Shown: in pieces, positions 93 to 4,437 of the stretch
Layout of the letters: each line of letters starts with the position of its first letter
How positions within the stretch are numbered: the stretch's first letter is position 1
Source of the DNA: Promethearchaeota archaeon
GTDB taxonomy: Archaea; Asgardarchaeota; Lokiarchaeia; Sigyniarchaeales; SOKP01
Reading direction: 5' to 3'
Length of the DNA: 33,292 nt
Assembly (NCBI GenBank): GCA_019058295.1
Contig: JAHPZI010000005.1
Span: 1 to 33,292 of the forward strand
The notes under the pieces: generated by a model
Seen by the model: the letters and a program-made list of their open reading frames with translations, nothing else
Told to the model about the DNA's origin: nothing
Databases searched by the model: none
Position numbers and translations under genes: made by a program

Positions 93-959
93 TTAGAGAT
101 TTTCTATTGCTGTACCTCGTCGAACACGATGATTCTTCATCCCAATATCTTCAGAACTAATTCCCATTGCTAAAGCAATTAATTCCGTTATATAAAGAAC
201 AGGAATATTATATTCTGCATCGAATTTCTTCGATAGATCTCTCTGGGATGTATCAAAGCGTTGAAAGCAAGCAGGACAGTTCACAACAATCACGTCAGCA
301 CCTGCTTTTTTAACAGAATCTAATTTCTTCTTTAGAATTGCATCGCCATGATCCGGAAACGGACCAGCCACAGCATTTCCACAACATAATGCTAATTCGT
401 CATAATCAACTACATTAGCACCGGTAGCAGCAGCAATCTCTTTCAAATTTACTGGATGTAATGGATCATCAGATTCCATCCATTCTACAGGACGCATATA
501 ATGGCAGCCAGGATGGCAAGCTACTTTTAGATTGCTCATTTGTTTTGTAACAGCACCTTTAATAGCCCCTAAATTTTCCTTAAGAACGTCAACAAAATGC
601 CTTACATCAATTGAACCTTTATATTCCTTTCCAATTTTAGCTAATTCTTTATTAATAGCCTCTTTTTTATTGGAATCATGTTTTAATTGATGTTGAACAC
701 CTCGTAAGGTGTTTGCGCAACCATTACATAAGGAAATAATAGGTTTGCCTTCTGCTTCAGCTAAACATAAGTTTTGGGCGCCCATCGCAAGCCAAGCGGT
801 ATTATCAAAGCATTTCACACCAGTTGGATCAGGACAACACGAAAAAGGAGCTTGTGATGTCTGGACTCCAATTTTATCAAGAACCTTTCTGGATGCTGCT
901 TCTATAAAAGGAATTCTGTTTCCAATTACACAACCCTCAAACATTTTATATTCTGTCAT
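93..959 (-). CDS. hdrB: CoB-CoM heterodisulfide reductase subunit B (two CCG domains)
   Basis: FEGC..., FSCCPDP, CNGC, HPGCH, CCG and NCPACF motifs typical of HdrB; directly downstream of hdrC. Confidence 0.93.
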   Translation of the reverse strand: MTEYKMFEGCVIGNRIPFIEAASRKVLDKIGVQTSQAPFSCCPDPTGVKCFDNTAWLAMGAQNLCLAEAEGKPIISLCNGCANTLRGVQHQLKHDSNKKEAINKELAKIGKEYKGSIDVRHFVDVLKENLGAIKGAVTKQMSNLKVACHPGCHYMRPVEWMESDDPLHPVNLKEIAAATGANVVDYDELALCCGNAVAGPFPDHGDAILKKKLDSVKKAGADVIVVNCPACFQRFDTSQRDLSKKFDAEYNIPVLYITELIALAMGISSEDIGMKNHRVRRGTAIENL

Positions 960-974
960 TTTTTTACCCTCCGT

Positions 975-1508
975 TTATAACTTTTTATCAGCACCTATAT
1001 TTTTTAATAAAGTCTGCACTTCATTAACATTTGGTGCAGCTACGGCTGGTAAGCCCATTTGTTCTCGTCTTCTCTCGATCGCGGGTTGTGATGGAATTGC
1101 TTTACCATTCTCAAAAACAGTTTTTGCTTGAGCTACGACATTATCAGGTGCAAGTCCCGCACCAGAAGTTACGTTTTTAGCTAAACCAATAATTTCAGTA
1201 ACTTCAATCGCCTGTGGACAAACTGTATCACATGTATCGCATACAGTGCAACCCCAAGGAATAAGAGCTGATTTTGAGCCTGCTAAGGCCATCACAATAT
1301 CTTTATATCCTAGAAGTGTCCCTAATACAATCAATCTTGGATCAAACCAATTAGTTACTTCATGGTAAAAGGGATTTGCAACTGATGCGACAGGACAATT
1401 ATCAGTGCATCGATTACATTGATAACAGTATTTTATCTTATCAGATCCAATGTGTACATCCATAATTAATTTCCTAAATTCAAAATCTATACCCAATGGT
1501 AATGTCAT
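975..1508 (-). CDS. hdrC: Heterodisulfide reductase subunit C (2x[4Fe-4S])
   Basis: CYQCNRCTDNCP and WGCTVCDTCDTVCP motifs; C-terminal RRREQMGLP typical of HdrC. Confidence 0.92.
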   Translation of the reverse strand: MTLPLGIDFEFRKLIMDVHIGSDKIKYCYQCNRCTDNCPVASVANPFYHEVTNWFDPRLIVLGTLLGYKDIVMALAGSKSALIPWGCTVCDTCDTVCPQAIEVTEIIGLAKNVTSGAGLAPDNVVAQAKTVFENGKAIPSQPAIERRREQMGLPAVAAPNVNEVQTLLKNIGADKKL

Positions 1509-1557
1509 TTTTTTTCACTTTTTTTTGAGTTTTTTCCATTTTATTTTTTTCATTTTT

Positions 1558-1630
1558 GTTGGTTTTAACCCATGCAAGGGCAGTCATATCCAATCTATAA
1601 TTTTTATTGGATATTTCATCCTAAACCAAC
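1558..1630 (-). promoter_or_regulatory. Eukaryote-like (Lokiarchaeota-type) SECIS element of vhuU
   Basis: Minus strand reads GTTGGTTT-AGG-ATGA-A-ATATCCAAT-AAAAATTATAG-ATTGGATAT-GA-CTG...AAACCAAC: AUGA/GA core, perfect 9-bp upper stem, A-rich apical loop and an 8-bp outer helix; about 80 nt downstream of the in-frame UGA. Confidence 0.8.
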
Positions 1631-1765
1631 GTGTAATTCACGAGAGTAAATTTCTTTACCATCCTCATCAACTACAGTGATGTGAGCGGCACACGATAGT
1701 CAGCAATCAAAACAGCGGACAATCATTTCTAAGACATTTACTACTCCTTCTGGTATATCACTCAT
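1616..1765 (-). CDS. vhuU: F420-non-reducing [NiFeSe] hydrogenase subunit U, selenoprotein (49 aa; UGA=Sec at 1702-1700); absent from the ORF track
   Basis: Manual translation MSDIPEGVVNVLEMIVRCFDC-U-LSCAAHITVVDEDGKEIYSRELHVGLG*; supplies the L2 motif D-x-(C/U)-x-x-C-x-x-H missing from the upstream large subunit; SECIS follows. Confidence 0.92.
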
Positions 1766-1802: not shown

Positions 1803-3110
1803 TTATTTTATCCATGGATCTGGTAATTTTAATCCATCTAACGCCTTATCTTCAAATACTTGTTTAGCCACATGCATTAATGTCTTTTCAATTCCTGCGA
1901 TATTATGATTTGTCGCAACTAAAAGGTTACACTTTTTACAAATACCATCAGCGTCTGACCAGATATTATATAACAGAAGTCCTCGTGGAGCTTCAGTTAT
2001 CCCTACTCCATTTCCTTCTCTAGGTTGAACATCAAGTGTTTTACAGTCAGGATTTACAATATCTGGATCTTTTAGAAGAGTTGCAATCATTTCAATTGCC
2101 TCAACAGTTTCAATTATTCGTGCCCAATGATAAGCAAAAGTATGGTGTATTACGTTAGTTCCAACTTTTTCCCTCATTGCTTTTAATGCTTCATCTGCGA
2201 GAGGTGTTGCCATTTTATCAGCACAATTTATCATTGCTAAGGTGTTTGCTCTATAGATTCCTTCGGGATATCCAGCAGGTTTATAATACATATGAGTTGC
2301 ATATGAGTGCTCTGGAATATGCTCTCCTAATGCTTCTAAATATCTCTGTGGAGCATAATCGGTTTTTTCTCCCGTTGGAGAAACAATTCGAATATCACCT
2401 TCATAGATATCATGTACTCCATTATTTGTCATTCCAACATAATATGTTGGGACAACACCTACATTAGCAACAACATCCCAATAATCATCTATAACTTTTA
2501 GCGCAATATCTACAGTCTTCTTAGTCATTTCAATTTGATCGTCAATTACTTTAAGGAATTTATCGCGAACGTCTTCATCTAAAGCCTTTTTCATACCGCC
2601 AACGATTGCGGCGATCGGGTGAACAGCCTTACCACCAACAGCAGCACATAGTCTTTGACCGAAATCCATCATTTTTAATGCCATTGCTCCAACATCTGGC
2701 ATCTTATTAATTACATGTACTACATTTCTTAATGCAGGATCTGCCATAGGCCCTAATAAGAAATCTGGTGCTGTTAAAGCGTAGAAGTGAATTAAATGCG
2801 AACTGTATTGTTTAGCATTAATTAAAAGTTGTCTTAATTTTCTTGCAGGTTCAGGAATCTGAACACCCCAAGCATCTTCCACTGCTTTTGTTGGAGTTAA
2901 ATGATGTGGTATTGGACAAATTCCGCAGATTCTTGGAGTAATTCTTGGAATGTGTTCACAATATCGTCCTTCAACAAATTTTTCAAAGAATCTTGTCGAT
3001 TGGATATTAAATTGTACATCTTGAACTTTTCCATCATCTCCAAGAACGACTCTCATTCCACCATGCCCCTCTAATCGAGTTATGGGCTCTACTTCTATTT
3101 CTTTCACCAT
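1803..3110 (-). CDS. vhuA: F420-non-reducing group 3c hydrogenase large subunit (VhuA/MvhA type), lacking the C-terminal L2 motif
   Basis: EPITRLEGHG N-terminus, L1 motif PRICGICPIPH, EAPRG motif; ends ...LPDPWIK with no DPCxxCxxH. Confidence 0.92.
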   Translation of the reverse strand: MVKEIEVEPITRLEGHGGMRVVLGDDGKVQDVQFNIQSTRFFEKFVEGRYCEHIPRITPRICGICPIPHHLTPTKAVEDAWGVQIPEPARKLRQLLINAKQYSSHLIHFYALTAPDFLLGPMADPALRNVVHVINKMPDVGAMALKMMDFGQRLCAAVGGKAVHPIAAIVGGMKKALDEDVRDKFLKVIDDQIEMTKKTVDIALKVIDDYWDVVANVGVVPTYYVGMTNNGVHDIYEGDIRIVSPTGEKTDYAPQRYLEALGEHIPEHSYATHMYYKPAGYPEGIYRANTLAMINCADKMATPLADEALKAMREKVGTNVIHHTFAYHWARIIETVEAIEMIATLLKDPDIVNPDCKTLDVQPREGNGVGITEAPRGLLLYNIWSDADGICKKCNLLVATNHNIAGIEKTLMHVAKQVFEDKALDGLKLPDPWIK

Positions 3111-3114
3111 TTTT

Positions 3115-4437
3115 TTAACCTCCTTTTCTCGATGCTAATGTAAATTTCTCAAAGGTACCAACTTTATCTTTTACTTGAGCAAGCAATTCATCCTTTGATA
3201 AGCTTACATTGAAGCCTTTAATTGCCGTTTCAGCAAACCTTTCTGCTTGATTAACACCCCATTCTGTTTGGCCATAACAACCTGAACATGGAGCATTAAC
3301 CTTAACGCATAAGGCACCACAGCCAGCTCTAGTAACAGGACCCATACAAATATAGCCTTGTTCAATTAAACAATCCTCTAAATTTGGGAGTCCTTCATAA
3401 TCTCTCTTAACTTTAGTCATTGTTGATTTACTACCGATAATTCTATCACAAGTATCACAAACATTTGAGATGTCAATCAAATCGCGATTATCTCTTAAAA
3501 ATCCTAATACATTAGAAGCAATACTTACTGTATCAGGTGGTAAATTTGCTAATGGTGTTTCTGGTGTACCACGCTTTTTAACTTGTTTCAGAATATCCGC
3601 TGACAAATCAAAACCGGCCATTAGCGGTACGTTTAGAAATAATGATAGAAATTCGTTACTCGTCTTTTTATCACCAGAACTAGCTGAAGCGAGATTTTTG
3701 GTCATGTCATTTAATTTTGAAGCGCGTGCAGAGACTGTTTTTGCCGGTCCCATACATCCCACACAAGGATTTCCAGCATTCGGACATTTCAGCGAACAGC
3801 CGATACTGGTAATTGGTCCATAACATAATTTTCCTGCATCTAAAAGGCATCCCGATTGATTTAATGAACAATCATTACAAAAAGCAAGATCATTCATAGG
3901 GAATGGCTTTTGACCTAATAGAAATCCTACAGCACCGAAAATTTGTTCTGATCTTGGAGGACATCCTGCTATATAAGCATCAACCTTGATTATTTTATCA
4001 ACGTTAACAATCTTGTCCTCGAATCCAGGTACATGTTGGGTAGGTTCTCCACCACTTCCATCTGCGATACTTTCAACTTCAGAAAATTTACGTCTTACTA
4101 GTTCTTCCTTGCTCCATTGATTAGCTAATCCATGTACATTTCCATAACAAGAACAACTGCCAAATGCAATGATTATTTGACATTTTTCACGCATTAACTT
4201 TGTTCCTTCAACGTCTTGTTTAGTTCTAAGACTGCCTTCAATGAAACCAACGACAATTTCTCCGGGAGCTCTAGCTACCAATGAATCATATTTGAAATCA
4301 ACTACAGCTGGCCAATAGACAATTTCTAACGCTGGAAGTACCGGTAAAAGCTGTAAATGTAAATCTACCAAGCTTTGGTGGCATCCCCAGCAATCAGAGT
4401 TTTGCCAGAATGCTACTTTGACCATTTTTTTTTTCAC
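3115..4437 (-). CDS. vhuG: F420-non-reducing hydrogenase small subunit (VhuG/MvhG) with a duplicated C-terminal Fe-S module; likely start ATG at 4425
   Basis: DCWGC, EGS, AFGSCSCYG and GCPP proximal-cluster motifs plus two CL-x5-C-x-GP-x-T-xx-GC-xxx-C-x6-C-x-GC-x-G modules. Confidence 0.9.
   Translation of the reverse strand: MKKKMVKVAFWQNSDCWGCHQSLVDLHLQLLPVLPALEIVYWPAVVDFKYDSLVARAPGEIVVGFIEGSLRTKQDVEGTKLMREKCQIIIAFGSCSCYGNVHGLANQWSKEELVRRKFSEVESIADGSGGEPTQHVPGFEDKIVNVDKIIKVDAYIAGCPPRSEQIFGAVGFLLGQKPFPMNDLAFCNDCSLNQSGCLLDAGKLCYGPITSIGCSLKCPNAGNPCVGCMGPAKTVSARASKLNDMTKNLASASSGDKKTSNEFLSLFLNVPLMAGFDLSADILKQVKKRGTPETPLANLPPDTVSIASNVLGFLRDNRDLIDISNVCDTCDRIIGSKSTMTKVKRDYEGLPNLEDCLIEQGYICMGPVTRAGCGALCVKVNAPCSGCYGQTEWGVNQAERFAETAIKGFNVSLSKDELLAQVKDKVGTFEKFTLASRKGG

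Follow-up and report, generated by a model that had tools for sequence, protein, structure and literature searches.

A probable SECIS element of the lokiarchaeal type at the 3′ end of vhuU, with the stop codon in its core and a conserved third hairpin

We identify positions 1558-1630 (minus strand) of a 33,292-nucleotide stretch of Promethearchaeota DNA (contig JAHPZI010000005.1; hereafter the window) with high confidence as the SECIS of vhuU, an element of the class described as lokiSECIS or Asgard type I eSECIS-like, predicted to form a three-way junction with a kink-turn (k-turn) arm whose core holds the stop codon of the gene. Its predicted fold, its covariation among relatives, its association with Sec-encoding genes and the Sec machinery of the genome make this identification as secure as sequence analysis allows. 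The arrangement in which AUGA includes the stop codon has been published before, for VhuU.1 by Mariotti et al. (2016, Mol Biol Evol 33:2441; PMC4989117) and as a frequent overlap by Huang, Xiao and Zhang (2024, ISME J 18:wrae111; PMC11227280). The window is another instance, with a minor variant in which a 1-nt spacer is combined with GA. Only the three-way junction, together with the conserved hairpin that forms its third arm, may be undescribed.

The vhuU gene and its neighbourhood

The host assembly is a 79%-complete metagenome-assembled genome (MAG) of 3.2 Mb with about 30% G+C. Its closest public vhuA loci, at 82-97% identity, come from MAGs labelled Promethearchaeota or Promethearchaeia, the current NCBI names for Lokiarchaeota and Lokiarchaeia. 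On the minus strand of the window, vhuG-like, vhuA, vhuU, hdrC-like and hdrB-like genes follow one another in an operon-like series:

3115-4437, minus strand: vhuG-like gene, hydrogenase small subunit (Pfam Oxidored_q6)
1803-3110, minus strand: vhuA, large subunit (Pfam NiFeSe_Hases, N-terminal part)
1616-1765, minus strand: vhuU, 49 codons followed by the stop UGA (1618-1616)
1702-1700, minus strand: Sec codon UGA, codon 22 of vhuU, in the motif RCFDC-U-LSCAAH (from translation and orthologues)
1509-1557, minus strand: A-rich spacer between vhuU and hdrC (from sequence)
975-1508, minus strand: hdrC-like gene with two 4Fe-4S motifs (Pfam Fer4_8)
93-959, minus strand: hdrB-like gene with two CCG stretches and HdrB-like_C

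The vhuU frame opens at the ATG at 1765, translates as MSDIPEGVVNVLEMIVRCFDCULSCAAHITVVDEDGKEIYSRELHVGLG and closes at TGA 1618-1616, after which the frame reads AAT ATC CAA TAA. Judged from its translation, vhuU encodes the C-terminal part of the [NiFeSe] hydrogenase large subunit as a separate piece: the vhuA product lacks the C-terminal Ni-binding motif, and the 49-codon vhuU provides it. VhuU aligns with the C-terminal 25-30 residues of the solved MvhA and FrhA chains (RAYDPCLSCSTH region; E ~1e-4), with UGA22 at the first Cys of the DPCxxC of solved hydrogenases, the position of a Ni-ligand Cys. Codon 22 is TGA in all 84 distinct vhuU orthologues, and 36 of the 41 related genomes carry the gene, almost always with a single in-frame TGA.

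Within the Ni-binding motif (1682-1717, minus strand; R-C-F-D-C-U-L-S-C-A-A-H), a Cys takes the place of the Pro of other hydrogenases (DPC/U). D-C-U is kept in nearly all Lokiarchaeia VhuU orthologues, and D-P-U occurs in one sister-family locus. The small subunit (3115-4437, minus strand) is 440 residues long and matches Oxidored_q6 over residues 16-170 alone; its C-terminal 270 residues carry further Cys motifs without a Pfam match. We also considered a hairpin starting at the Sec codon itself and rejected it as unsupported in this clade: its fold was no better than that of shuffles (z = -0.07), and one of its six pairs was retained in just 34 of 84 orthologues.

Fold, covariation and a third hairpin

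Read 5′ to 3′ on the minus strand, the element consists of the following parts:

1630-1623, minus strand: helix I, 5′ arm GUUGGUUU, in codons Val46-Gly47-Leu48; pairs with 1565-1558
1622-1616, minus strand: k-turn, 5′ strand; A1622-G1621 form a short C-stem with C1583-U1582, followed by the bulge G1620-A1619-U1618
1619-1616, minus strand: AUGA core, containing the UGA stop (1618-1616)
1615, minus strand: unpaired extra A separating AUGA from helix II (clade-specific variant)
1614-1606, minus strand: helix II, 5′ arm AUAUCCAAU; 9 bp with 1594-1586
1605-1595, minus strand: 11-nt apical loop AAAAAUUAUAG (from sequence and fold)
1594-1586, minus strand: helix II, 3′ arm AUUGGAUAU; pairs with 1614-1606
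1585-1584, minus strand: GA directly 3′ of helix II (from sequence)
1585-1582, minus strand: k-turn, 3′ strand; G1585-A1584 in sheared pairs with A1616 and G1617, then C1583-U1582
1581-1568, minus strand: helix III, GCCC (1581-1578), loop UUGCAU (1577-1572) and GGGU (1571-1568), from the minimum free energy (MFE) fold
1565-1558, minus strand: helix I, 3′ arm AAACCAAC (from RNAfold and covariation)

The original prediction, made from the window alone, had listed a GA/GA core, a hairpin and an outer helix whose 5′ arm lies inside the final vhuU codons. Each of these parts was found on the minus strand where it had been placed, and the outer arm does fall in the Val-Gly-Leu codons 46-48. RNAfold, which had been suggested as a check, returned the claimed structure: the MFE and centroid folds are both the one proposed here (-21.5 kcal/mol, z = -3.4), and 1 of 200 shuffles did as well. 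In the published definition, a lokiSECIS has AUGA, then a stem of 9 bp whose 11-nt loop opens with five A and closes with G, and then GA, or AA in the case of VhuU (PMC4989117). The window has AUGA, the 9-bp stem, an 11-nt loop of the form AAAAA...AG and GA after the stem.

We aligned 79 distinct vhuU 3′ ends, drawn from loci of 36 related genomes and 80 named contigs (alignment A1), built a covariance model from this alignment (R1), and collected the 47 further, non-vhuU elements that the model found in a second alignment (A2). With the three-helix structure imposed on A1, 96.1% of cells pair and double changes occur in 12 of the 21 pairs; none of 500 shuffles attained any of the observed measures, and a slid 3′ partner pairs at 27-50%. 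Covariation across orthologous vhuU loci, which had been named as a way to check the element, is thus present in both helix II and the outer helix (n = 79, 0/500 shuffles). The observed covariation score of A2 (n = 47) was likewise attained in 0 of 500 shuffles, and over the two alignments slid controls pair at 27-53%. All nine pairs of helix II covary in A1 and in A2, and its 5′ arm takes 62 distinct sequences.

The single-stranded parts are conserved among related elements. AUGA is present in 111 of 115 distinct elements; the apical loop has 11 nt in 90 of the 115, starting with AAAAA in 87 and ending with AG in 86. The dinucleotide 3′ of helix II is GA in 68/115 and AA in 43/115. Twenty-two distinct vhuU elements have a 1-nt spacer between AUGA and helix II, and all 22 have a 3′ GA, whereas 33 of 45 spacer-less vhuU elements have a 3′ AA. 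In the clade of the window, an additional purine separates AUGA from helix II, and the published rule of AA in VhuU fails here.

The core is a canonical k-turn by sequence consensus. Of the 111 elements that carry GA or AA, 107 have G-C as the -1b/-1n pair, which joins the base ahead of the bulge to the one beyond the 3′ GA or AA; the bulge of 3 nt reads GAU in 77 elements and AAU in 26, with tandem G.A/A.G (or G.A/A.A) pairs next to it. The k-turn pattern is matched and conserved, with two reservations: kinked geometry lies beyond sequence evidence, and k-turns do not usually have an unpaired base, here A1615, next to the G.A pairs. The L7Ae-bound k-turns of archaeal box C/D RNAs and ribosomes share the G-C closing pair, the 3-nt bulge ending in U and the tandem G.A/A.G pairs, and GGAUGA in the window resembles box C (RUGAUGA). 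Unlike the box C/D k-turns, the element has neither D box nor guide, and its C-stem is 1-3 bp long and leads into a three-way junction.

The 17 nt that separate GA from the outer helix had been regarded as an unstructured asymmetry. This view is refuted by the conserved GC-rich hairpin at 1581-1568. A hairpin of this type (at least 4 bp, at least two of them G-C) lies 3′ of the GA or AA in 110 of 111 elements, which come from all gene families. In the controls it appears at a rate of 16% among shuffles and 9% among [G/A]AC sites taken at random from the genome. It occurs as 43 distinct stems, among them ACCC/GGGU, ACUC/GAGU (a C-G to U-A exchange) and UCCCU/AGGGA, and its loop holds a GC dinucleotide in 110 of 115 elements. 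Because helix III joins helix I and the k-turn arm, the element is a three-way junction. We found no mention of a third hairpin or three-way junction in the text of PMC4989117, PMC11227280 and PMC11881835.

It is unlikely that only the published hairpin (AUGA, 9 bp, 11-nt loop and GA) is functional and that the outer helix and the mini-hairpin are incidental results of coding constraint or local composition. Coding constraint from vhuU does act on the 5′ arm of helix I, the literature has a lower stem and an internal loop without conserved nucleotides at this place, and the central pairs of helix III are mostly invariant C-G, so that its covariation is thin. Helix I nevertheless covaries through compensated synonymous changes: within vhuU, GUU to GUA is matched by AAC to UAC in the non-coding 3′ arm and GGU to GGC by ACC to GCC, and two pairs appear as UA/AU/CG and CG/UA. 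Outside vhuU, where the helix is non-coding, covariation extends to all 8 pairs, and the sequences are quite different. Incidental origin also sits poorly with a helix III that is nearly universal in a genome of 30% G+C, far above its controls, and that varies among stems by exchanges such as C-G to U-A while its loop GC is conserved.

A three-helix element is the reading we prefer. As a tentative extension, to which we give somewhat less than an even chance, the functional Asgard SECIS may comprise an L7Ae-type k-turn arm, a basal helix and the GC-loop third hairpin instead of the published simple hairpin; the third arm would then offer another site of recognition, perhaps to archaeal SelB or to the ribosome.

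UGA as probable Sec codon and as stop

The gene ends ...GUU GGU UUA GGA UGA, and the A of the last Gly codon together with UGA makes up AUGA. The core TGA (1618-1616) had been proposed as the vhuU terminator and is indeed the last three bases of AUGA 1619-1616. The further claim that one short cistron uses UGA in both meanings is supported, with codon 22 as Sec and codon 50 as stop; the A of AUGA comes 83 nt after the Sec UGA (1702-1700). Such dual use within a 50-codon cistron is an example of position-dependent recoding.

Codon 50 is UGA in 76 of the 84 distinct vhuU orthologues. Three of the others read UUA UAG GAUGA, with a stop one base ahead of an intact AUGA, and five sister-family orthologues are terminated by UAA and have their AUGA core some 20 nt further downstream. 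Since AUGA is kept where it is not the stop, the core is conserved for its own sake and the stop overlap is a lineage-specific economy. The stops of several vhuD genes in related genomes likewise overlap AUGA.

The core UGA might itself be read as Sec, at least in part, giving a protein that ends ...GLG-U-NIQ at the TAA. This we regard as very improbable. Its appeal is that a SECIS recoding UGA22 is present and that an in-frame TAA follows after three codons. That backup TAA, which the original prediction had placed four codons on, is real in the window but occurs at this distance in only 21 of the 76 distinct TGA-terminated orthologues, whose next in-frame stops range from 3 to 41 codons away. 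It is only a by-product, CCAAUAAAA of the stem-loop read in the frame of this clade. The C-terminus ...VGLG is conserved in VhuU and the frame beyond UGA is not: a 1-nt indel right after UGA separates two large clades, so that the downstream frame differs between them. The three orthologues ending at UAG one codon earlier and the five ending at UAA also argue against a second Sec, as does the minimal UGA-SECIS distance proposed by Mariotti et al. 2016 (PMC4989117).

We thus read the core UGA as the terminator. It would escape recoding because a ribosome that arrives there would already have melted helix I and the core.

Genomic copies, Sec machinery and related elements

A strict pattern scan (9 bp, 11-nt loop, GA) of the 3.2-Mb genome gave two matches only, both 3′ of genes with in-frame UGA. 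A covariance model had been proposed as another check, and R1 found four matches in the whole genome. All four sit at the 3′ ends of selenoprotein genes that contain an in-frame UGA, namely vhuU (100.9 bits), two hdrA-vhuD pairs (contigs C18 and C1) and selD with FGUSCK (C9). The same-family genomes sampled were positive in 25 of 25 cases, with 1-5 matches each. The 47 non-vhuU matches lie downstream of vhuD, selD, hdrA-like and prxL-like genes and small ORFs, most of them with in-frame UGA. In a 150-genome sample of the phylum, R1 gave no match beyond the window's own family; the sister-family vhuU loci carry the element when examined by eye. We take this blank as the result of a model that is too sequence-specific, together with strict filters, rather than as absence of elements.

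The genome encodes SepSecS (386 bits), a Sec-containing selD and two L7Ae-family proteins. About 220 nt upstream of SepSecS lies a tRNA-Sec-like gene (C30:102616-102699, plus strand; L183:1501-1584) with a CUUCAAA anticodon loop (UCA) and a long variable arm, which scores 44.2 bits in Rfam against a cut-off of 47. ARAGORN did not call this gene and found no tRNA in the window.

Among the copies, helix II of the hdrA-vhuD element at C18:25468-25549 (plus strand) is identical to that of the vhuU element (AUAUCCAAU/AUUGGAUAU), and helix II of the one at C1:161713-161798 (minus strand) differs only in its 5′ arm (AUAUCAAAU). The outer helices of both differ from that of vhuU. The shared helix II suggests either constraint at the sequence level or gene conversion within one genome.

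The least probable of the readings we weighed is that the element is a generic L7Ae-binding k-turn, a C/D-box-like sRNA, or a hairpin that stabilises or terminates the 3′ end. An Rfam search of the window gave no SECIS family at its gathering score, and SECIS_1 was blank up to E 10; the sole matches were weak ones to C/D-box snoRNAs (15-25 bits, E 0.28-4.6), which are due to the box-C-like 5′ strand GGAUGA. The best of these reaches 25.2 bits against a gathering score of 43 (thresholds 43-60), and the element contains no CUGA D box and no guide region. A generic k-turn is at odds with the finding that all four genome copies follow Sec-encoding genes. For a terminator one can point to RNA-library contigs that end near 1569, whereas no oligo-T follows the element in hdrC-linked loci.

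Co-transcription of vhuU, SECIS and hdrC, with the element in the middle of a polycistronic mRNA, is plausible, if only tentatively so. The hdrC start lies 107 nt beyond the vhuU stop on the same strand, and the spacer has a Shine-Dalgarno-like GUGA ahead of the hdrC ATG and no oligo-T run. An hdrC-like start is found at most 330 nt away in 52 of 81 distinct orthologous loci. None of these 52 has a run of five or more T after the SECIS, which is indirectly compatible with read-through transcription; 12 loci without hdrC carry such runs directly after helix I. Relatives of the stretch were found in four RNA-library (metatranscriptome) runs, and one contig of a relative (X18 record 27) spans 1393-1630. 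We do not count this bridging contig towards co-transcription, because contigs cannot prove a single transcript and DNA carry-over is possible. Two further contigs (X17) stop at 1569; both come from one run, and for this reason we claim no 3′ end there.

The SECIS would direct Sec insertion at UGA22. By analogy with eukaryotic SECIS and SBP2, and with archaeal k-turns and L7Ae, an L7Ae-family protein or archaeal SelB would bind the k-turn and loop and bring Sec-tRNA(Sec) to a ribosome paused at UGA22, 83 nt upstream. SBP2 has no known counterpart in Asgard archaea (PMC4989117). A lokiarchaeal SECIS was non-functional in Methanococcus maripaludis (PMC11881835), so that factors specific to the lineage, or else the complete three-helix element, may be needed. 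If the third arm is a recognition site and the construct tested lacked it, this could explain the failure in the heterologous reporter. Three-helix covariation and a canonical k-turn together give a concrete plan for the constructs with which an Asgard SECIS can first be tested for function.

That an AUGA..GA SECIS of eukaryote-like type has been described in Lokiarchaeota, as the original prediction stated, is borne out by the literature (PMC4989117). The lokiSECIS of VhuU.1 shares with the window its gene family, its phylum and the anatomy of AUGA, 9 bp, 11 nt and purine-A; it differs in having AA where the window has GA and an extra A (PMC4989117). With the Asgard type I eSECIS-like elements (PMC11227280) the window has in common the AUGA_GA/AUGA_AA core, the A-rich apical loop and the frequent stop overlap. 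Those elements lie within about 30 nt of the 3′ ends of frhA/vhuU, hdrA-frhD, selD and prxL, with which the window agrees, and the lower stems reported for frhA ([U/C]GG_C[C/U][A/G]) correspond to UGG/CCA in its helix I (PMC11227280). The published model has two stems and an internal loop without conserved nucleotides (PMC11227280), whereas in the window a conserved hairpin occupies the 3′ side of that loop.

Eukaryotic SECIS of type I (RF00031) share the AUGA...GA k-turn core, a basal helix, adenines 10-11 nt past the core, distant action on an upstream UGA and a minimal-distance rule. In contrast to them, the window element has a helix II of 9 bp rather than about 12-15, an extra third helix, and a location that overlaps the coding sequence within a probable operon instead of a 3′ UTR. 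Asgard SECIS elements bear on the origin of the eukaryotic Sec system, a point already made in 2016 and 2024. Euryarchaeal SECIS are single stem-loops with a GAA_A internal bulge and G-C clamps (PMC11881835, PMC11227280). The predicted difference from the methanococcal type holds, as the RNAfold structure has no GAA_A bulge. We rejected the idea that helices I and III are a relic of the methanogen GAA_A SECIS; there is no GAA_A-like bulge and no conserved 3′ A.

As a by-product, the searches gave leads to small candidate selenoproteins in related genomes. Seven of these genomes (loci L153, L161, L163, L164, L165, L170 and L181) have an ORF of about 40 residues resembling a zinc ribbon (MIFCLNCK...GYYYCxxCKK.TYF..LRFK), in which UGA is followed directly by UAA or UAG and a full three-helix lokiSECIS core lies about 40 nt downstream. 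The product could be a small selenoprotein that carries Sec at its C-terminus, and the seven Asgard families of Huang et al. 2024 (PMC11227280) do not include it. Four loci (L137, L148, L168 and L178) carry small membrane ORFs with one transmembrane segment, past which there is a conserved GGG-U (Sec) motif, and each ORF is followed by a lokiSECIS; these are candidates for undescribed membrane selenoproteins.
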